42,264 bases of DNA, from contig JAGWHV010000002.1 of the NCBI GenBank assembly GCA_028866595.1, positions 1-42,264 on the forward strand, given 5' to 3'. A program made the translations under genes and the position numbers. A model generated the notes under the pieces. It was not told the DNA's origin, made no database searches, and was given only the letters and a program-made list of their open reading frames with translations. Shown here piece by piece: positions 4,254 through 21,166 of the stretch (positions are counted from its first letter, which is position 1; each line of letters opens with the position of its first letter). This stretch comes from Patescibacteria group bacterium (GTDB taxonomy: Bacteria > Patescibacteriota > Minisyncoccia > Phycocordibacterales > UBA6065).

Positions 4254-4742
4254 ATGAAGCGCATCATCGCCATCTCAATGATCTCTCTCATCGTCGCCGC
4301 GACCTTCGGCGGAGCGGTGGTGTTCGCTGCCCAATCACCGAGTCAGACGGCGGGTTCTGCCTCACCCCAATCATCAAGTTTCCAACTCGTCTCGTGTAAT
4401 CCGACGATCGATCCGTCAGGCCAGTTTGTCCAAGGCACTGAATGTGACTACAGCCAGCTCATCGCTACAGCGACAAGGATCATTATGTTCGTGCTCTATA
4501 TCCTTACGCCGCTTGTCATAGGCATGATCCTCTATGCAGGCTTTAAATACATGATGGCGGGTAGCGATGCGCGCCTTCTGGAAGACGCAAAAAAAATGTT
4601 CAAGCCCATCCTCATCGGCGTCTTCTTTATTTTCGCCGCCTGGCTTATCGTCTATACTATACTGAACGGCCTCCTTGCGAGTCAGATCGGCGATGTAAAA
4701 AAGACCGACATCATCCCCACGACTCCTAATTCAACACAATGA
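4254..4742 (+). CDS. small secreted/membrane protein, TrbC/VirB2-like (T4SS-pilin-like) topology, paralog 1
   Basis: 162 aa. Layout is signal peptide, Cys-containing segment, TM1, charged loop (AGSDARLLEDAKK), TM2. ATGA overlap with the next gene. Confidence 0.6.
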   Translation: MKRIIAISMISLIVAATFGGAVVFAAQSPSQTAGSASPQSSSFQLVSCNPTIDPSGQFVQGTECDYSQLIATATRIIMFVLYILTPLVIGMILYAGFKYMMAGSDARLLEDAKKMFKPILIGVFFIFAAWLIVYTILNGLLASQIGDVKKTDIIPTTPNSTQ

Positions 4743-5281
4743 AAAAGACATCGATCATATTCGCGGTCGCCCTGGCTTCGCTTTTGTTCGCGCAGACAGC
4801 TTTCGCTTTGACCGCCGCGCCGGGCTCGGCGAATTCTCTTCTTACGGGACCATCTCAAGATCAGACGAACCCGAGTACGAGTCAGACCAACCTGCCGCAA
4901 AGCAGTACGAATGCGCCTCAAAGCAGCACTAATCCTCCGCAGTCGACGACGAATCCACCTCAATCGACGACAAATGCAAACACAGGCGCGACATCTCCGT
5001 CTTCGGCGCTAGGCACGATCCCGAATCCACTCAACGGTGTGAATAGCCTCTCTGATCTGTTCTACAAGATCGTCAACCTCGTCGTGAGCATAAGCTATGT
5101 AGTCGTTGCTTTTTTCCTTATCTTGTCTGGATTTAAATTCGTTACAGCCCAGGGGAACGAGAGCAAGCTCGAAGATGCAAAGAGCACTTTTTTTCACACG
5201 GTCATCGGCGCTTTCATCGTCATCGGCGCCCAGGTTATCATCGATGTGGTCAAGAGCATATTCACGAGCTTTGTCTCCTGA
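4739..5281 (+). CDS. small secreted/membrane protein, T4SS-pilin-like, paralog 2, with S/T/P/Q-rich repeat region
   Basis: 180 aa. Signal peptide (AFA), low-complexity PQS(S/T)TN(A/P) repeats, then TM1, loop (AQGNESKLEDAKS), TM2. It shares the KLEDAK loop with paralog 1. Confidence 0.6.
   Translation: MKKTSIIFAVALASLLFAQTAFALTAAPGSANSLLTGPSQDQTNPSTSQTNLPQSSTNAPQSSTNPPQSTTNPPQSTTNANTGATSPSSALGTIPNPLNGVNSLSDLFYKIVNLVVSISYVVVAFFLILSGFKFVTAQGNESKLEDAKSTFFHTVIGAFIVIGAQVIIDVVKSIFTSFVS
4895..4978 (+). repeat. 4 x 21-nt imperfect tandem repeat inside paralog 2
   Basis: Encodes PQSSTNA PQSSTNP PQSTTNP PQSTTNA (residues 53-80 of the ORF). Confidence 0.85.
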
Positions 5282-5319: not shown

Positions 5320-6147
5320 CTATCTCCTCTCGATCGTGAAGGGCTCGTCTGGCGACCAGAAAACCACTCCGTCGGCGTCGTGGATATCGAATCTTCCGTC
5401 GACAAGACGGACAGGCATGGTCTCTTCCCAATGATGAAAGCCGTGGCGGTATAAAAGCACTGCCTGGAGGCCGGAAAAGAAGTGAAGCACTATACGCCCG
5501 CTTTTGATTTGACGGCTCGAAAACTCTTCAGACCTCTCTCCCGGGGAATAGGTGCGCATCCCGCAGAGCTTTTTCACGGGCGTGCTGTCTATTGTCCCTG
5601 TACTCGGTGATGGGACGGTAGGATTTGGTCTATCGACGACAGATCGCGGTTGAGGAGTGTCGGAAAGACTTTCCTCCGGCTCGGCATCTCGGTGTCGTAG
5701 GATATTTCGGAGAGCCTGCTGGGTTTTCTCATTTCCTGAATTGATATCGTGCCGCATCTGACCGTTCGTCTCAGCGAGCGTCGCTCCGACATTGATGGCG
5801 GTCTCCGCGACGTTTTGGAGACCTCTCTCGACCCTTCCTGTCGCCGTCTCAATAGTCTCACGCGTCTTATCTCCGTCTGACGAAAGCGACTCCTTCATCT
5901 GCGTCGTCGCATCAGCTATGGCCGATTTGATGTCCGAGTATCCCATCGTCTCCAGTCGCGACGATGCGCGGTTTCCCGTGACCATCATAACGGCGAGAAT
6001 GCATACGAGAATGGTCGTATACAAGAACAACGTCTCGGGCTTGCTCCACAACCTCTTTTTCCGTCGCCTTTTTCTTTGCACGACTGGCGTAGAAGTCATT
6101 TTCCGTGAGGACTGATTTCCTGGGCTCATGTGATCTTTCAAATGCAA
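5320..6147 (-). CDS. hypothetical single-pass membrane protein (start codon uncertain)
   Basis: 275-aa ORF. Basic N-terminus (RKRRRKKR), then a TM (LFLYTTILVCILAVMMV). No recognisable domain. A hairpin GCCGTC/GACGGC (about 5293-5310) with a T-run on the minus strand follows the stop. Confidence 0.5.
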   Translation of the reverse strand: MHLKDHMSPGNQSSRKMTSTPVVQRKRRRKKRLWSKPETLFLYTTILVCILAVMMVTGNRASSRLETMGYSDIKSAIADATTQMKESLSSDGDKTRETIETATGRVERGLQNVAETAINVGATLAETNGQMRHDINSGNEKTQQALRNILRHRDAEPEESLSDTPQPRSVVDRPNPTVPSPSTGTIDSTPVKKLCGMRTYSPGERSEEFSSRQIKSGRIVLHFFSGLQAVLLYRHGFHHWEETMPVRLVDGRFDIHDADGVVFWSPDEPFTIERR

Positions 6148-6336: not shown

Positions 6337-6744
6337 ATGAAGAAAGCTTTCATTATCGGCGCCAGTATCGTCGCTTTGACGCTCTTTTCGGCCTCGACCG
6401 TTTTCGCTGCCGCTACACTCGCACCGGCGGCCGCGTCACAAGCGAATTTGGGTGCCTGTTCTTCGCTCACTACTTATGGTCTGACCGGTGTCGTAAGCTG
6501 CATCATAAGCATATTGAATAACCTTGTTATTCTCCTCATCGCCGGGGCCGTCGTGTATATCGTCTATGGCGCGTTTGAGATGATTCGGAGCGAGGAAAAG
6601 AGAGAAAGCGGCCGTCAGACCATCGTCTATGGCATCATAGGGCTATTCGTGATGATCTCGATCTGGGGCTTCGTTAACATCCTGAGCAGCACATTCAAGC
6701 TCCAATCTGGTCCGATAACTCCTCCAGCGCTCGTAAATCAGTAA
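6337..6744 (+). CDS. T4SS-pilin-like small membrane protein, paralog 3
   Basis: 135 aa. Signal peptide (VFA-AA), TM1, loop MIRSEEKRESGRQ, TM2 IVYGIIGLFVMISIWGFVNIL. TM2 is nearly identical to that of paralogs 4 and 5. Confidence 0.65.
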   Translation: MKKAFIIGASIVALTLFSASTVFAAATLAPAAASQANLGACSSLTTYGLTGVVSCIISILNNLVILLIAGAVVYIVYGAFEMIRSEEKRESGRQTIVYGIIGLFVMISIWGFVNILSSTFKLQSGPITPPALVNQ

Positions 6745-6840
6745 TTTGGGATATCCCCATACGCCGATTTTCCGCCTGTTTTTCTTGGTACAATAGAGGG
6801 GCAAATGATTTTGCGGCATTATTATAAGTTTTAGCGATAT

Positions 6841-7203
6841 ATGAAAAAATTCAGCTACATAGCGGTATTGGCTGCGGCGCTCCCGTTCTCGGCGGATGCC
6901 GCGATCAACAACGTCTGGGACATCTTCCGCTTTATCCAGAGCCTTCTCAACACGATCCTGCCTCTCATCATAGCGGCGGCAGTCGTTTACTTCGTGTGGG
7001 GCATGTTCCAGCTCTTTCTCGCTGGCGATGAGGAAAAGAAGGAGAAAGCCAAGACGACGGTCATATACGGCGTCATCGCGATATTCGTGATGATCTCGAT
7101 CTGGGGCCTCGTCAATATCCTCGTCAACACCTTTGGCTTGAGCAACGTCTCGCCGACATCGAACGGCACAAATCAGCTTCCATCCGTTCCGATAAACGGC
7201 TAA
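6841..7203 (+). CDS. T4SS-pilin-like small membrane protein, paralog 4
   Basis: 120 aa. Signal peptide, TM1, loop AGDEEKKEKAKT, TM2 VIYGVIAIFVMISIWGLVNIL. Confidence 0.65.
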   Translation: MKKFSYIAVLAAALPFSADAAINNVWDIFRFIQSLLNTILPLIIAAAVVYFVWGMFQLFLAGDEEKKEKAKTTVIYGVIAIFVMISIWGLVNILVNTFGLSNVSPTSNGTNQLPSVPING

Positions 7204-7207
7204 GCCG

Positions 7208-7465
7208 ATGAACACGAACGCGCTGAACTATCCTGTAGTCCAGAAGCTGTTCACGCTTGTTGTAAATCCTGTAGTCGAGCTACTCTTTGCCGCGGCTGCT
7301 TTCTACTTTATTTGGGGCGTATTCAAGTACATCAGGAACTCTGATGACCCGAGCGGCAGGGAAGAGGGCGGTAAGCATATCTTATATGGCATCATCGGCT
7401 TGTTCATCATGTTCTCCGTGTGGGGAATAATTCAAGTCGTGAGGAGCACTCTCGGGGTTCATTAA
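7208..7465 (+). CDS. T4SS-pilin-like small membrane protein, paralog 5 (no obvious signal peptide)
   Basis: 85 aa. TM1, loop NSDDPSGREEGGKH, TM2 ILYGIIGLFIMFSVWGIIQVV. Confidence 0.6.
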   Translation: MNTNALNYPVVQKLFTLVVNPVVELLFAAAAFYFIWGVFKYIRNSDDPSGREEGGKHILYGIIGLFIMFSVWGIIQVVRSTLGVH

Positions 7466-9811: not shown

Positions 9812-10237
9812 TCAGCCGGCGGTCGCCGCCGCATCGACGGCGCAATGGATCGCCATGGAGAGGTCGTCGAGCCCGATCGGCTTGTAGATCCGAACGGCGC
9901 CGACGGCGTACCGCTGCCCGTCGACGACATCGACGAGGATGATCGGCAACTTGGGCCGGGCGGCGCGCAAGACGAAGGAGAAAAGCGCCGCGTTGACGTT
10001 GCCCACCAGATCATCTTGGCTCACGATCGCCAGGTCGACATCGGCTTCGGGGAGAAGCTCGAGGGCTTGCTCCGTCGTGTGGGCGACGATCGCCTGGTGG
10101 CCTCGCCGCTCGAGCATTCGTTTGACGACGTCGACGACGGCGTCGTCGGTTTCGATGAGAAGGACATTCACGATCAACAAAGTAACATCTCGGGTGATGT
10201 TTGTCAAACGCCTTGACGATTGATTCTCGCGCGGCAT
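9812..10237 (-). CDS. stand-alone response-regulator receiver (REC/CheY-like) domain protein, possibly degenerate
   Basis: About 141 aa from the ATG at 10237 (the track ORF extends to 10270). LLIETDD acidic pair and YKPIGLDDL (conserved K-P). The expected phospho-acceptor region reads DLAIVSQDD. No output domain. Confidence 0.6.
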   Translation of the reverse strand: MPRENQSSRRLTNITRDVTLLIVNVLLIETDDAVVDVVKRMLERRGHQAIVAHTTEQALELLPEADVDLAIVSQDDLVGNVNAALFSFVLRAARPKLPIILVDVVDGQRYAVGAVRIYKPIGLDDLSMAIHCAVDAAATAG

Positions 10238-10322
10238 AATACAGTTACGGCCCTGGCCCTGCTGCTTCAATGCACGGGCCGGCTTCGCTGAAATGCGAGC
10301 CGGTCGCAGGGAAAGCCTCCGT

Positions 10323-10581
10323 GGCGGCCCAGAGTTAAAGTGTATGCGTCAGTGTCGAGGTGGCCCGCAAGGGCATAAAGTTGCTCTGCCAAGCAGAGCA
10401 TAGGTAATCCCTGAAAAGGGACGTCCATGTGTGAGAAGGCATTTCTCCACGGTTCGAGTCGGTGCTGTGCGTTCGCGACGAATTCCGGCCTCTCTCGGGA
10501 TGTATCGCACGCGCATTCCGGGCGCGTTTCCGGTTCCGCACCCTTGAACCTCAGCATATGTGCATACGCTACTCTGGGCCG
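10323..10581 (+). ncRNA. candidate retron msr-msd-type structured RNA bracketed by a long-range inverted repeat
   Basis: 10323-10334 pairs with 10570-10581 (12 bp). 10339-10346 pairs with 10561-10568 (8 bp, one G-U). Small hairpins inside lie at 10362-10373 (GCCC-GCAA-GGGC), 10381-10399 (8 bp), 10407-10420 and 10432-10446. A long imperfect stem joins 10450-10464 to 10537-10549. The element lies directly upstream of the RT ORF. Ends and strand are inferred. Confidence 0.5.
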
Positions 10582-10595
10582 CGCTGGCTCTTTCA

Positions 10596-10625
10596 AAACC
10601 GCTACTTCGTGTAGCGGTTGCTTTT
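10596..10625 (+). terminator. terminator-like hairpin between the structured RNA and the RT start
   Basis: AACCGCTAC-ttcgt-GTAGCGGTT (9 bp, 10596-10618), followed by GCTTTTTA. Confidence 0.45.
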
Positions 10626-10643
10626 TATGGCGCGCCGAATAGT

Positions 10644-11585
10644 ATGGGCGTTAGAAATATGAATGACGCTTTATTCGACATTGGTGCTTTCGGGCATCGA
10701 TCCGAGGCGCCGCTCTTTCACAAGCGCTGGATCAATGACATCAACCCATTGAGCGGTCACAACAAGCGCCGTCTCATATGCGCTCCGAATCAGGCGATGC
10801 GCGATGTCCATGCCAAGACCATCAGATGGTTGCGGAGCCTGCGGGTCGCGATGCCTAGTGCGACTGCCTGCAGGCTAGGGGACTCTGCCTATCGGAACGT
10901 CCTGCGTCACAAGAAGGGCACCGGCCGTTCTTTCAACAGGTATTTCTTCTTGATGGACATCGACTCGGCGTACCCTTCGGTCAAGATCGGACGCATGGTC
11001 GACGTGCTCGTCGCTCTCAAGCCAGACCTCGAAGAGAGGCGTTTCGCTCTCTGGGTGTTCTTGGCGAGACATTGCTTCGACGATCAGACGGGCGGTCTCG
11101 TCACTGGAGCGCCGGCGTCTCCTGACCTGTTCAATCTCTACTGCGAAGTAGAGATCGATCGGCCGATGCGCGTCCTCTGCGCTCGTTATGGCCTCACCTA
11201 TACTCGGTACCTCGACGATCTCACATTCTCGTCAGCGAGCCCGATAGGGAAAAAGAAGCGCCGCGCCCTCTCTGACATCGTCCTTCGCGCCGAGTTCCGC
11301 GTGAGCCACAAAAAAGCGCGCGTCTATGACTTGCGCAAAGGCCCGGTCGTCATAAACGGGATGGGCGTCCAGCTCCATGGGAAAGTCTTCGTGCCGCGGC
11401 GCACGCTTGATCACATCCGAGGCCTCTTGCATGTGGCGTCGAACGAGAGCGGAGTGTCCGCATCGGTCATACACGGCAAAATGAGCCTGCTCAAAGCCGT
11501 CACAGGCCGACGTGGCGCCAATCGGACCGAAGAGAAAGTCTTTGAAGCCTACGAGCGCTTCCGAAAATCGTCTCGAACCTCCTAA
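10644..11585 (+). CDS. retron-type reverse transcriptase (about 313 aa)
   Basis: RT motifs: R-LICAPNQAMRDVHAKTIRWL (domain 1-like), NVLRH (NAxxH-like), FFLMDIDSAYPSV (motif A), GLVTGAPASPDLFNLY (motif B), YTRYLDDLTFSS (YxDD box at 11208-11219, retron-like YTRYADD-TFS context) and VINGMGV (VTG-like). Its size fits retron RTs. Alternative ATG at 10659. The track start at 10560 lies inside the structured RNA. Confidence 0.7.
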   Translation: MGVRNMNDALFDIGAFGHRSEAPLFHKRWINDINPLSGHNKRRLICAPNQAMRDVHAKTIRWLRSLRVAMPSATACRLGDSAYRNVLRHKKGTGRSFNRYFFLMDIDSAYPSVKIGRMVDVLVALKPDLEERRFALWVFLARHCFDDQTGGLVTGAPASPDLFNLYCEVEIDRPMRVLCARYGLTYTRYLDDLTFSSASPIGKKKRRALSDIVLRAEFRVSHKKARVYDLRKGPVVINGMGVQLHGKVFVPRRTLDHIRGLLHVASNESGVSASVIHGKMSLLKAVTGRRGANRTEEKVFEAYERFRKSSRTS

Positions 11586-11618
11586 CAGGGGTTTTTTTAT
11601 TTGAGGACTTACTGTTTT

Positions 11619-11702
11619 TGGTGGGCAGGGAGGGACTTGAACCCTCACGCCTTGCGGCACTAGCTCCTAAGGCTAGCGCGTCTGCCATTTCGCCACCTGC
11701 CC
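11619..11702 (-). tRNA. tRNA-Leu (anticodon UAG), CCA encoded
   Basis: The reverse complement folds as a class II cloverleaf. Acceptor GGGCAGG/CCTGCCC, anticodon loop CTTAGGA, long variable arm, T-loop TTCAAGT, 3' ACCA. Confidence 0.9.
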
Positions 11703-11761
11703 GTAACGGATTTGAGCTTATCACAGATAGGCCTCGTCGACGAAGTGTTCTGTCTATCGTG

Positions 11762-11834
11762 TCCGCCCACCAGGGATCGAACCTGGGACCGTTCGCTTAA
11801 GAGGCGACTGCTCTACCAACTGAGCTATGGGCGG
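11762..11834 (-). tRNA. tRNA-Lys (anticodon CUU)
   Basis: Acceptor CCGCCCA/TGGGCGG, D-arm GCTCAGTTGGTAGAGC, anticodon loop CTCTTAA, T-arm CCAGGTTCGATCCCTGG. Confidence 0.85.
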
Positions 11835-11864
11835 GAATCCAATTTTCAGAATCTACCAGAAATT

Positions 11865-12011
11865 TTACTTCTTAGCAATGAATTTTTTGAAGCAGGTCTT
11901 GCAGATGTGATATTTTCTGACGATATCTTTCTTGCTAGGCGGACTGAAAAGCAGGGCTCCAAAATCCTTCAGTTCTTTCTTGCAAAAATCGCATGTCGGT
12001 CGTATCGCCAT
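11865..12011 (-). CDS. 48-aa zinc-ribbon mini-protein embedded in the tRNA cluster
   Basis: MAIRPTCDFCKKELKDFGALLFSPPSKKDIVRKYHICKTCFKKFIAKK carries two CxxC pairs. The segment is locally AT-rich. The track ORF's N-terminal extension runs into tRNA-Leu(UAA). Confidence 0.5.
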   Translation of the reverse strand: MAIRPTCDFCKKELKDFGALLFSPPSKKDIVRKYHICKTCFKKFIAKK

Positions 12012-12014
12012 ATG

Positions 12015-12098
12015 TGCCCGGGGTGGGAGTCGAACCCACAAGACCTTTCGGTCGGGAAATTTTAAGTCTCCTGCGGCTGCCAGTTTCGCCACCCGGGC
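12015..12098 (-). tRNA. tRNA-Leu (anticodon UAA)
   Basis: Acceptor GCCCGGG/CCCGGGC, anticodon loop CTTAAAA, long variable arm (CGACC-GAAA-GGTC), T-arm GTGGGTTCGACTCCCAC. Confidence 0.9.
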
Positions 12099-12117
12099 GT
12101 TTCCGTTTCTGTCGGGA

Positions 12118-12188
12118 GGCCACGGCGGGAATCGAACCCGCGCATAGCGGTTTTGCAGACCGCCGAATTACCACTTTTCTACGTGGCC
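12118..12188 (-). tRNA. tRNA-Cys (anticodon GCA)
   Basis: Acceptor GGCCACG/CGTGGCC with discriminator U, anticodon loop CTGCAAA, T-arm GCGGGTTCGATTCCCGC. Confidence 0.9.
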
Positions 12189-12217
12189 GAGCGGAATTCA
12201 GTATAGGCTAGCCAGAG

Positions 12218-12538
12218 CTATCGCGCCAGGCTCTCGTCGATTCTCTGGCGGGCCCGCTCGCCGCGGTCGATCTCGAAATCGAAGAAGGGGACGCGCATGA
12301 GCCGGGCGTGGTCTTTGGCGTAATCGCGGAATGCCGAGCGCTGGCGCTTGAGGAAGTCGAGCGCCGCCTCTTCCTTGTTCTCGGGTAAGACAGTGAAATA
12401 TATCGTGGCAAAGTCGCCTTTCTCCGTGGCCGAGACGCGGGTGATGGTGATGAGCGACGTGCGGTTCGACTCCGCCTTGAGGAATTCGGCGGCGAGGTGC
12501 TTGAGGATCTCTTCGAAGCGGTCGTGTTTGATGGACAT
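12218..12538 (-). CDS. rbfA: ribosome-binding factor A
   Basis: 106 aa, typical RbfA sequence (LITITRVSATEKGDFATIYFTV...). It lies immediately downstream of infB, the canonical synteny. Confidence 0.9.
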   Translation of the reverse strand: MSIKHDRFEEILKHLAAEFLKAESNRTSLITITRVSATEKGDFATIYFTVLPENKEEAALDFLKRQRSAFRDYAKDHARLMRVPFFDFEIDRGERARQRIDESLAR

Positions 12539-12541
12539 ACT

Positions 12542-14119
12542 CTATTTTTCTACGACGATGAAGTCTTCGATGACGTCGCCTGGCGCGAGCTCGATCGATG
12601 CCTCGATCATCGCTCCGAATTCAAAGCCTTCCTGGACGGAAGACGTCTTGACCTTGGTCTGCTGAAGCTCGCGGATGAGGCCGTCGCCGATGAGCGTCTC
12701 TCGGCGGATGATCTTGACCTGATGACCGAGAGATATCTCACGGTCGGTCACTTTGCCGCCGACGATCTGGCGATCTTTCGTCCGACTGAAGAATTTAAGG
12801 ATCTTGGCCCGGCCGGCGATCTCCTCGACCTGTATCTTTGGCGTGCGCTCTGTGAGGTGCTCTTCGAGCCATTCGCGGAGGTTGTATATGATGTCGAATG
12901 TCTCGTGGGCGATGCCGAGCCTCTCGATCATCGCCGCTGCCTGGCTGTCGACGCGGACGTTGAAGCCGATGACGAGTGCGTCTTTGTCAGCGCCGGCGGC
13001 TTTGATGTCGGACTCGGTGATATCACCTATGCCGGCGAGGAGCGTTTTCAAGGCGATGCGCTCGTGGGAGATCTTGGCGATCTCGTGCTCGATCGCCTCG
13101 ACCGAGCCTTGGACGTCGGCTTTTATGACGAGAGGGATGAGCTTTTTTTCCATCGCGCCCTCGCCGGCCGCCGGCTCGGGCGCTCTTTCCGCCGGCCGAG
13201 GTTTCTTTTCGTCCTCTTCGGCTTCTTCGATATAGGCTTCGAGCGTTTTTTTATCATCGAACGTCACGAAGCTCTCGCCGACGCGCGGCGCTTTGTTCCA
13301 GCCGACGACGCGGATCGGCTGGGAGAACGTGGCCTCGGCAACTTTTTTGCCGGCATGATTCTCGAGGATGCGGGTAGGGGAGAAAGCGCTTCCCGCGGCG
13401 ACGAACATGCCGGGGCCGACTCTGCCGTTTTTCACGATGATCGTGGCTGATATGCCTTTTTTCGGATCGCGATGGGTTTCGATGATAGTGCCTGACCCGA
13501 GAGCGCTCGGGTCGCCCTTGAGCTCGGCGATCTCGGCGGTGAGGACGATGAGATCGAGAAGCTCCTCGACGCCCTGGCCGGTTTTCGCCGATATCGGCAC
13601 GAAAGAGACATTGCCGCCGAAGCCTTCCACGTATATGCCCGCCTCGGCGAGAGACATCTTGGCGCGATCGACGTTTGCCGAGGGCTTGTCTATCTTGTTT
13701 ATGGCGACGACGAAGGGGACTTTGGCTTTCTCGATCTCTCTATAGGCGTCGATGGTCTGCGGCTTGACGCCGTCTTCGGCCGAGACGACGAGTATGGCGA
13801 CGTCGGCGGTCGTAGCGCCGCGCTCGCGCATGCCGGAAAACGCCTCGTGGCCTGGCGTGTCGATGAACGTGATGCGCTCGGTCCTCGTCGCGCCATCGTC
13901 GGCGGTGACGACCCGTTCTATCTCATATGCCGATATGCGCTGGGTGATGCCGCCGGCTTCGCTATCGACGATGTTCGTTTTTCGGATGTAGTCGAGGAGA
14001 GTGGTCTTGCCGTGGTCTATATGGCCGAGGATGGCGACGACCGGCGGGCGCTTGACCAGAGCGCCTTTTGCAAGGGCGCCTGAAATACCGCTTTTCTGTT
14101 GTGCTTTTTTTCCTGCCAT
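12542..14119 (-). CDS. infB: translation initiation factor IF-2 (short form lacking the long N-terminal region)
   Basis: 525 aa. G-domain motifs [20 protein letters not shown] and NKID, plus the C-terminal IF-2 domains. Confidence 0.95.
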
Positions 14120-20887: not shown

Positions 20888-21043
20888 ATGTCCCAGGACC
20901 AACTCATCATCCTCCGCAATAAAGAGACAGGCGAGGTCTACTACAGCCGCAAGAACAAGCGCAAAGTAGAGCGCAAGATCGAGCTCAAGAAATACTCCAA
21001 AAAGCTCCGCAAGCGCGTGACTTTTAAAGAAAGCAAGAAGTAG
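20888..21043 (+). CDS. rpmG: 50S ribosomal protein L33
   Basis: 51 aa: MSQDQLIILRNKETGEVYYSRKNKRKVERKIELKKYSKKLRKRVTFKESKK. L33-like pattern (YxxxKNKR...LELKKY...H/V-x-FKE-K). It is too short for the ORF track. Confidence 0.8.
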   Translation: MSQDQLIILRNKETGEVYYSRKNKRKVERKIELKKYSKKLRKRVTFKESKK

Positions 21044-21158
21044 AAAAACAGGAGGAATGCCCCTCGAAAAGTCCGCGTCGCGCCTGCTGGCGCGCGCTTT
21101 GCTCGGCCTCGACGGCCTGCGCAGAGTCTTTTCTCGGAACATTCCTCCTGTTTTTCTA
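21041..21158. terminator. ~118-nt nested inverted-repeat element between convergent genes (copy B)
   Basis: Perfect 19-bp arms TAGAAAAACAGGAGGAATG (21041-21059) / CATTCCTCCTGTTTTTCTA (21140-21158). Inner stem GAAAAG/CTTTTC (21066-21071 / 21128-21133). Internal hairpins GCGCC-tgct-GGCGC (21080-21093) and GGCC-tcgac-GGCC (21105-21117). Confidence 0.5.
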
Positions 21159-21166
21159 TTTGTTTT

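Follow-up and report, generated by a model that had tools for sequence, protein, structure and literature searches.

Every retron of known function uses a linked toxin, and the orphan clades (Ec107-like and clade 11) have no explanation yet. What a retron might do without an effector is the question raised by a locus in the DNA of a Patescibacteria group bacterium (NCBI GenBank assembly GCA_028866595.1, contig JAGWHV010000002.1, positions 1 to 42,264 of the forward strand; this whole stretch of 42,264 nts is referred to below as the window). There a gene for an intact retron-type reverse transcriptase (RT; 10644-11585, + strand) stands 3′ of a structured noncoding RNA (ncRNA; 10324-10582, + strand). 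The locus is probably a stand-alone retron-type cassette, a minimal RT and its cognate msr/msd-like RNA, from an effector-less lineage of the Candidate Phyla Radiation (CPR). The lineage never carries the usual retron toxin gene and therefore probably works by a different logic. It is a large and well-conserved orphan lineage: its RT clusters number several hundred, the RNA core is defined, the arms are specific to each unit and multi-template arrays occur naturally. These traits make the question of a retron without an effector directly testable. With this lineage, retron-type elements are extended to CPR.

Class of the reverse transcriptase

The RT has 313 aa when read from the ATG at 10644 (the gene caller's start, the ATG at 10659, gives 308 aa) and was identified by hidden Markov models (HMMs), profile search, motifs and predicted fold. 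A first-pass annotation, made from the letters of the window, had reported an open reading frame (ORF) of about this length with retron-style motifs, and all of these are found: NVLRH, GAPASPDLFNLY, YTRYLDDLTFSS and VINGMGV, together with the catalytic box YLDD. The protein contains an RVT_1 domain (Pfam E = 1e-10). Its top PADLOC matches are solely retron RT models, at 1e-14 to 2e-23 and 50-81 bits, with no type standing out, and 40 of 40 aligned family members match every retron type, the best model being RT_VI at 1.5e-37. In a search of PDB sequences with the family profile, the matches to retron RTs (Ec83 8e-32, Ec86 2e-30, Ec78/Sen2-like 1e-23 to 1e-26, Ec67 3e-20) are far stronger than those to other RT classes (group II 1e-8, Drt2 4e-7, Drt3 7e-5, AbiK 4e-3). 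The fold matches of an AlphaFold model (pLDDT 93.3, pTM 0.89) are retron RTs at all of ranks 1-15, over the full length and with TM 0.60-0.68; an RT of a diversity-generating retroelement (DGR) comes only at rank 27.

At the level of motifs, NVLRH aligns with NAKIH of Ec83 and NATPH of Ec86, the NAxxH position (N[V]xRH in the family), and INGMG (family [IV][NT]G) aligns with the retron VTG; judged from the alignment, the A-to-V and T-to-N changes are conservative variants. Across 40 diverse members R188, Y189, D191 and D192 do not vary, and the motifs N..H and xxG are conserved. As the catalytic residues are invariant across such a range, polymerase activity is under selection. The RT is retron-type by PADLOC and NCBIfam HMMs, PDB profile search, predicted fold and motif alignment, and retron RTs score best rather than group II, DGR or other non-retron RTs. 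Since all retron models score alike and below the type cut-offs (NCBIfam retron_St85 86 bits, cut-off 235; TIR type 65 bits, cut-off 600), it lies outside the described types, fitting none of the 13 (Mestre types I-XIII).

Several other identities were tried and set aside. For a group II intron or its G2L relatives, Rfam gives tRNAs only at E <= 10, and group II RTs score 1e-8 compared with 1e-30 for retron RTs. No template or variable repeat involving 10300-10640, as a DGR would have, is present in the 42-kb window. Membership of UG38, a small CPR group of the UG/Abi RTs, is disfavoured by the affinity to retron over UG/Abi RTs, a comparison at class level only. As for a phage origin, the ncRNA is without a phage match and the phage homologues of the RT are distant (23-31%).

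A word-indexed search returned 165 RT homologues, all of ~300 aa, and every named source among them is CPR (Paceibacterota, Parcubacteria, Berkelbacteria, Patescibacteria); an exhaustive profile search gave 520 representatives (50% clusters) at E <= 1e-30. The loci fetched were 43 from genomes, 75 from metagenomes and 8 from contig look-ups. The genome records are Patescibacteria metagenome-assembled genomes (MAGs), except for two labelled Gammaproteobacteria (a third-party assembly). Where a source is named, this RT lineage of several hundred sequence clusters is confined to Patescibacteria/CPR. The closest relative with DNA, locus L119, has an RT 56% identical to that of the window.

The family RT is a bare enzyme of ~300 aa with no fused effector domain, the exception being a distant sub-branch with a C-terminal fusion to a CHC2 zinc ribbon of the DnaG type (PF01807, E = 1e-24 to 1e-28; L038:5920-7167, L039:6010-7284, L041:5926-7143). 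This sub-branch comprises 13 clusters, all PF00078+PF01807, one of them annotated by NCBI as 'primase', and in its loci, too, a bracketed RNA lies upstream, here with the motif CCUCAGU. A connection of the RT product with single-stranded DNA (ssDNA) or with priming is hinted at by this fusion. Separately, a 640-aa ORF in a Saccharibacteria MAG (L043:5929-7851) joins an RT domain to YaaA/peroxide-stress (PF03883); this may be a genuine fusion, or an artefact of reading through during ORF calling.

The RNA 5′ of the RT gene

That the region upstream of the RT gene has no credible ORF and is densely structured was part of the first-pass annotation, and both points hold. The fold of 10300-10643 is at -165.1 kcal/mol, far better than shuffled sequences (-124.6 +/- 5.3; z = -7.6, 0/100 shuffles as good). 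A 109-aa antisense ORF lying over the ncRNA (10267-10596) has no conservation and was treated as spurious. Inverted repeats, the fold and an architecture common to dozens of homologous units delimit a complete msr/msd-like unit of 259 nts, from 5′ arm to 3′ arm, at 10324-10582; it and the elements that follow are on the + strand. All the elements described earlier are present, though most of their coordinates had been placed one base too low.

The unit is closed by P1, a perfect 12-bp inverted repeat whose a2-like 5′ arm GCGGCCCAGAGT (10324-10335) is 100% complementary to the a1-like 3′ arm ACTCTGGGCCGC (10571-10582) picked out by the repeat finder; it was correctly recognised in the first pass, one base lower. 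Past a 3-nt internal loop comes P2, AGTGTATGCGT (10339-10349) with GTGCATACGCT (10560-10570). This second helix had also been seen, and its length and position are here revised: 9 bp at 89% in the repeat finder (10339-10347 with 10562-10570), or 11 bp when G-U pairs are included. In the minimum free energy (MFE) fold, P3 follows, in which GAGGT (10357-10361; family consensus YUGAGG) pairs with ACCTC (10548-10552). The 3′ strand of P3 belongs to a conserved CCTCAGC motif (10549-10555) directly after the variable hairpin.

The four hairpins expected in the 5′ half were all recovered. Hairpin A (GCCC-GCAA-GGGC, 10363-10374, in the MFE fold) is specific to the window, outside the family core and absent from most relatives. 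Hairpin B (10382-10400), a conserved msr-like stem-loop, has 8 bp, TGCTCTGC-CAA-GCAGAGCA (10382-10389 with 10393-10400). Hairpin C (TCCCT-GAAA-AGGGA, 10408-10421) has a GNRA-type loop and comes after a conserved purine junction, TAGG in the window and AGAGG in the family. A further hairpin lies at ~10434-10447. The core stretch with hairpins B and C (10364-10432) is what the covariance models match (R1 36.9 bits, E = 1.4e-7; R2 39.5 bits, E = 6e-7), and it is their sole match in the 42-kb window.

The 3′ half is a variable, msd-like hairpin (10451-10550, in the MFE fold), presumably the template for cDNA. The long imperfect stem of the earlier description is present there, with its base shifted to 10451-10458 and 10543-10550; this base, P4, is formed by GGTTCGAG and CTTGAACC. 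The apical loop holds a pyrimidine run, CCTCTCTC (10489-10496), which represents the polypyrimidine tract of the family in a shortened and displaced form. The order of bracket, hairpins, long stem, bracket and RT is that of retrons, as had been pointed out; the msr and msd labels given to hairpins B and C and to the variable hairpin are assigned by position. Between the RNA and the RT start is a terminator-like element at 10597-10626, a 9-bp hairpin (AACCGCTAC/GTAGCGGTT, 10597-10619) followed by GCTTTTT, again as annotated. It is not a feature of the family, a comparable one being present in 8/25 upstream-type loci. Rfam gave tRNAs alone, and the ncRNA has no match to a known msr.

Conservation and covariation

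Folded upstream regions of relatives have a common architecture: a 5′ arm, the second helix, the YUGAGG strand, an A-rich linker and hairpin B, then the AGAGG purine junction, hairpin C with its GNRA-type loop, the variable hairpin, the CYUCAGC motif and the 3′ arm. When 18 cores were aligned with MAFFT alone, 17 of the 18 pairs given by RNAalifold had compensatory changes. Hairpin B has such changes at 8 of its 9 pairs in this sequence-only alignment, and in hairpin C both sides change at every pair. Paired cells amount to 88.5% (69.3% when shuffled), and the covariation score is 0.743 as against 0.333 for shuffled alignments (0/500) and 0.16-0.28 for slid partners. A larger set of 70 distinct model hits confirms the hairpin pairs, with 94% of cells paired in hairpin B.

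In 803 kb, with both strands scanned, the covariance model has 64 matches at E < 0.01. All are on the RT strand, 44 of them within ~500 nts upstream and 20 within ~440 nts downstream of the RT ORF; in the ~970 kb searched with covariance models the ncRNA never occurs away from an RT gene. Further loci with the RNA were brought in by later model searches. In most relatives of >=40% RT identity the CYUCAGC motif (<=1 mismatch) precedes the RT start by 50-170 nts; it is present in units placed downstream of the RT as well.

The closing helices were assessed in two ways. One took perfect Watson-Crick repeats that bracket 120-360 nts and end <=150 nts from the RT, in 75 loci. Repeats of >=11 bp are present in 28% of these, compared with 0.8% of dinucleotide shuffles and 2.2% of control windows; for >=12 bp the values are 18.7%, 0% and 0.8%. 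The other, which is not circular, used fixed flanks, 70 nts before the core hit and 75 nts after the motif. The duplex between cognate flanks is at -47.6 kcal/mol, that between non-cognate flanks at -31.1 +/- 7.3, and out of 43 possible partners a unit's own 3′ flank is the strongest in 27/43 units and third or better in 34. The unit of the window takes first rank (-59.6 kcal/mol). Compensation in the P1 arms is directly visible in the closest relatives, where GCGGCCCAGAGT of the window is replaced by CGGGGCCTGGAGT in L119, GGGCCCGGAGT in L124 and GGGTCCAGAGAGA in L126, each with its own complement, and is seen in L002 too. The two-part outer helix is also found in L001, L008, L058 and L024. 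P3 covaries across the family (UGAGG/CCUCA and UGAAG/CUUCA), and so does the base of P4 across units (for example GGUUCUAGG/CCCUAGAACC and GUUAGUC/GACUAAC), its cognate pairing being at -11.1 kcal/mol compared with -7.3 for non-cognate. The flank test, the P1 compensation and the changes in hairpins B and C bear out the expectation that bracket and stems would be conserved and covarying in homologous loci. The ncRNA is a conserved, covarying partner of the RT.

Arrays and the variable hairpin

Several traits of the ncRNA are unexpected in a retron: its flexible position, its arrays, its polypyrimidine tract and the wide range in length of its variable region. The ncRNA may be upstream or downstream of the RT, in 1-3 tandem copies and almost always on the RT strand. 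Three complete tandem units are present in L119 (2090-3129) and L123 (3932-4950) and two in L005, L007, L014, L060, L063, L122 (4299-4820) and L124 (253-814), while L027 has one unit on each side of its RT (5691-5908 and 7008-7247). Paralogous units within a locus have a near-identical core; their arms and variable hairpins differ, with compensation. No description of multi-unit ncRNA arrays per RT was found for retrons in the literature searched. Core-model matches beside the RT on the opposite strand were noted at L020:5842-5910 (minus) and L122:6176-6244 (minus).

The interior of the variable hairpin ranges from 25 to 231 nts across the family. A pyrimidine run of >=10 nts is present in 30 of 38 units (mean 12.0, compared with 5.7 for purine runs and 7.4 in shuffles), and usually begins directly after the 5′ strand of P4. 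The near-identical units of L071, L072 and L023 differ mainly by indels and substitutions in the polypyrimidine part of the hairpin, and this segment appears to be the one that evolves fastest. The possibility that the tract mimics an anti-Shine-Dalgarno sequence, or pairs with the AGAGG junction or the A-rich linker, was considered by eye and dropped, a minority of units fitting.

Absence of a linked effector and evidence for vertical descent

Between the RT stop codon and the tRNA cluster that it faces (four minus-strand genes at 11619-12188) the window has no ORF co-oriented with the RT, in agreement with the first-pass annotation. The same holds beyond the window. Clustering of ORFs within +/-4 kb of the RT, in 44 loci (>=50 aa, 1e-5) and in 93 non-redundant loci (>=60 aa, 1e-4), revealed no conserved neighbour, and among small ORFs of 28-130 aa within +/-1.3 kb none is conserved. 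The ORF families that are shared are housekeeping ones in small syntenic subsets (ABC-F ATPase, translational GTPases, a permease, acylphosphatase, Mur enzymes), and called-gene contexts are heterogeneous (L20/IF3/SmpB-tmRNA/FtsH, GroES/EL, ATP synthase). No linked protein partner is conserved across the family. Since conservation is lacking in large and small neighbouring proteins alike, the effector is absent family-wide and has not simply been lost here, as would be the case if homologues still carried it. The 99-aa ORFs that follow the RT in the two closest relatives, L119 and L124, were considered as a lost effector and rejected; they are mutually unrelated and absent from the window.

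The first-pass annotation had left three options, and they have fared differently. An effector-less retron now applies to the whole family, and a partner acting in trans is possible. A divergently encoded partner falls: the receiver-domain gene upstream is there as described (its match is weak, Pfam E = 2e-5, below the curated cut-off), but it recurs beside no homologue and is excluded on that account. The third option, a logic like that of DRT2, has no support from tests of frame and length or from the Drt2 score, as set out below.

A partner in trans would make the locus an ordinary toxin-antitoxin retron with its effector elsewhere in the genome, the complex restraining or activating an unlinked host protein on phage infection. 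All characterised retrons of known function do act through an effector (Mestre 2020, PMC7736814; later structural papers), and the variable hairpins and arms change quickly and are duplicated, as expected of an arms race. In one lineage of relatives a phosphoribosyltransferase (PRTase)-family gene (PF00156) is divergent from the RT, upstream of it (L120:3780-4421 (-), L121:1743-2384 (-)), which also fits, and which recalls PRTase-associated retrons and the neighbour of Ec107. However, the lack of any linked partner in ~90 non-redundant loci would be unprecedented for a co-inherited defence operon, and the loci lie amid housekeeping genes, not in defence islands. An unlinked effector is accordingly doubtful.

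The pattern of synteny also speaks against it. The order RT, tRNA-Cys(gca), IF2 is common to the window (10644-14119) and to L024 and L026, from two Parcubacteria-group MAGs, at identities of 36-37% for IF2 and 38-39% for the RT. (In L024 and L026 the cassette is flanked by tRNA-Leu(taa) and tRNA-Cys; that of the window comes before all four tRNAs. A count of 6-7 loci with IF2 near the RT was discarded, as the cluster was inflated by EF-G and other GTPases; it is true only of these three.) L003, L010, L022 and L062 have in common a second syntenic block, made up of permease, RT, RNA and acylphosphatase. Synteny kept at such low identity argues for vertical descent rather than a mobile defence module; sub-lineages seem to have passed the cassette on vertically, at fixed loci, for a long time, a pattern uncommon among defence modules. 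Such deep synteny suggests a domesticated cellular role in these minimal-genome organisms.

A possible mechanism and its alternatives

Retron RTs prime from the 2′-OH of a G. By analogy, the RNA would be transcribed with the RT or just ahead of it, and its outer helices P1 and P2, the equivalents of a1/a2, would with P3 (UGAGG/CCUCA) close a junction. The RT would recognise hairpins B and C with their intervening purine junction, in the role of the msr, and prime at the P3 junction; one paired G of the P3 strand could be the branching G. Copying of the variable hairpin would proceed from its 3′ base, by CCUCAGC, towards the polypyrimidine tract on the 5′ side, the proposed stop. The product would be a short ssDNA, tens of nts long, bound to the RT. 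With no toxin gene, the output would be the RT-RNA-DNA particle itself or would pass through an unlinked host factor. In relatives where an RT has two or three RNA units, a single enzyme would produce several different DNAs.

What the particle does can be proposed with less assurance. A role in conflict or sensing is plausible, though short of an even bet; a domesticated housekeeping role is less favoured. The fullest form of the proposal, an ancient and largely vertical CPR retron lineage with a non-toxin logic, in which one RT serves 1-3 templates and the DNA or the RT-RNA-DNA particle is the output, is offered tentatively. If true, it would be a new type of retron whose function falls outside the paradigm of abortive infection through an effector, and might act on ssDNA or replication transactions (compare the zinc-ribbon fusions) or as a nucleic-acid decoy. 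The compact RTs (~300 aa), which apparently accept several templates, are of practical interest for retron-based DNA production.

Several points weigh against the cassette being a DNA-producing retron of this kind. The RT is far below every type-specific cut-off, that of retron_St85 for example, and the lineage may be a sister group of retrons with a different chemistry. The covariance models miss about one third of the loci with good flanks, several of these bracketed. No conserved unpaired G was found after the a2-like strand, where the P3 YUGAGG and then the A-rich linker follow. The pyrimidine tract of the window is short and displaced into the apical loop, and an end of synthesis at the tract is purely inferred. 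The cDNA synthesis from the variable hairpin and its priming site are deduced. An unlinked effector would not be visible from loci alone. Lastly, type VI retrons have no detectable msDNA at rest (bioRxiv 10.1101/2025.10.22.683967).

This last point leads to a reading in which RT and RNA form a ribonucleoprotein without DNA in its normal state, the RNA being a scaffold or regulator or reverse transcription being triggered, as in type VI retrons, which lack msDNA when phage is absent (the same preprint). RT_VI, at the score given above, is the best retron model for the family and no clear branching G is identifiable, both of which accord with it. The invariance of YxDD and other polymerase residues does not, and the hallmarks of type VI, an embedded small toxic ORF and a helix-turn-helix (HTH) gene, are absent. 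A DNA-silent particle is therefore improbable, and the cassette that makes a short RT-bound DNA is preferred.

A scheme like that of DRT2, in which rolling-circle reverse transcription of a hairpin-closed template yields concatemeric cDNA encoding a de novo gene, is very improbable. It shares with the locus a single RT gene with an upstream ncRNA and no effector, and P4 joins the ends of the template, superficially as in the DRT2 ncRNA. However, the Drt2 model NF041746 gives 20 bits on the window RT against a 390-bit cut-off, and Drt2 structures 4e-7 against 1e-30 for retron RTs. Stop-free frames are not clearly enriched, whether linear (0.895 vs 0.762 shuffled for sense, 0.842 vs 0.663 for antisense) or concatenated (0.47 vs 0.35 and 0.37 vs 0.27 shuffled), and template lengths of 25-231 nts have no bias to multiples of 3 (13/12/13). 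Equally remote is a structured region that is only a 5′ leader or attenuator of the RT, or the end of a repeat or mobile element, and not a trans-acting template: the window RNA is in the RT 5′ region and is followed by a terminator-like hairpin, but that hairpin is not conserved, the RNA is downstream of the RT in 20 hits, in 2-3-unit arrays and also on the opposite strand, there is no TR/VR-type repeat in the window, and a dispersed repeat would not always be beside an RT gene in ~970 kb with unique arms in each unit.

Relation to known systems

The nearest parallels in the literature to the stand-alone cassette are the (msr-msd)-RT cassettes of clade 2 (the Retron-Eco5/Ec107 branch) and clade 11, for which restricted taxa, vertical inheritance and possible domestication for non-defence roles have been described (Mestre et al. 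2020, PMC7736814). As in these, a retron-type RT with an adjoining bracketed ncRNA is without a specifically associated protein, has a narrow taxonomic range and shows signs of vertical inheritance. Unlike clade 2, the RT_Ec107-like model gives only 2e-15 on the window RT and is not its best match. The hosts also differ, CPR here and Gammaproteobacteria and Actinobacteria there, as do the absence of an Rfam or known msr match, the placement of the RNA downstream or in 1-3-unit arrays, and the conserved polypyrimidine tract.

With type VI (Retron-Vpa2, Retron-Sen3) the family has in common its best-scoring RT model, a short RT of ~280-310 aa and a long structured RNA closed by inverted repeats, though its score is far below that expected of a member. 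Characteristic of type VI retrons are an HTH gene and, embedded in a hybrid RNA, a small toxic ORF; neither the HTH protein nor such an ORF is present or conserved in the family, a candidate embedded ORF having been sought and none found to be conserved. With retrons of solved structure, namely Ec86/Eco1 (II-A), Ec83 and Ec78 (both I-A), Eco2 and Eco8, it shares the RT fold over its full length (TM 0.60-0.68), the aligned NAxxH and VTG motifs, and the order a2, msr hairpins, msd hairpin, a1. It differs from these canonical retrons in its ~18-20% sequence identity, the lack of an effector and of an identified branching G, and its short and hypervariable msd-like hairpin. DRT2 (UG2) is similar in having only RT and ncRNA, with no protein effector in the locus; its RT is of the UG/Abi class, and the signal of a stop-free repeat-unit ORF is not seen here.

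A 2021 review puts ~80% of CPR RTs as DGRs. Retrons were found in 13 phyla by a 2026 metagenome survey, which is absent from the papers naming both 'retron' and 'Patescibacteria'. The literature search found no paper linking retrons to Patescibacteria/CPR or citing the representative accessions; it is mainly DGRs that are reported there.

Other features of the window

The tRNA genes 3′ of the RT are for Leu, Lys, Leu and Cys, and are followed by RbfA and IF2. Beyond the divergent receiver-domain gene, further upstream, are an SPFH-like gene and genes like those for type IV secretion system (T4SS) pilins. The wider window has core-chromosome genes (GyrA, ClpB, cysteine desulfurase, alanine racemase), its GC content is even throughout, and no PADLOC defence proteins were found near the RT locus.

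A weak promoter suggested in the first pass, at 10265-10293, was missed by a consensus scan, which gave instead a promoter-like site TTGACG-16-CATAAT at 10213-10240 (+ strand; 10/12 hexamer positions match), ~85 nts 5′ of the 5′ arm of the RNA. This candidate is not conserved, and the consensus may not be that of CPR; neither site is functional evidence.

Within the tRNA cluster an ORF of ~48 aa (11865-12011 (-)) with two CxxC pairs (MAIRPTCDFCKK...HICKTCFKKF) starts 3 nts past tRNA-Leu(taa). Neither Pfam nor PADLOC gives a match for it, and it lacks conservation beside other RT loci. Four adjoining small T4SS-pilin/TrbC-like genes (PF18895) were noted (4254-5281 and 6592-7465), and a family of 104-nt direct repeats at 6592, 7030 and 7349 reflects their paralogy. 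Two long intergenic inverted repeats, one after gyrA (2246-2407; 54 nts, 78% complementary) and one at 21035-21164 (37 nts, 84% complementary), are possibly terminators or regulatory hairpins.

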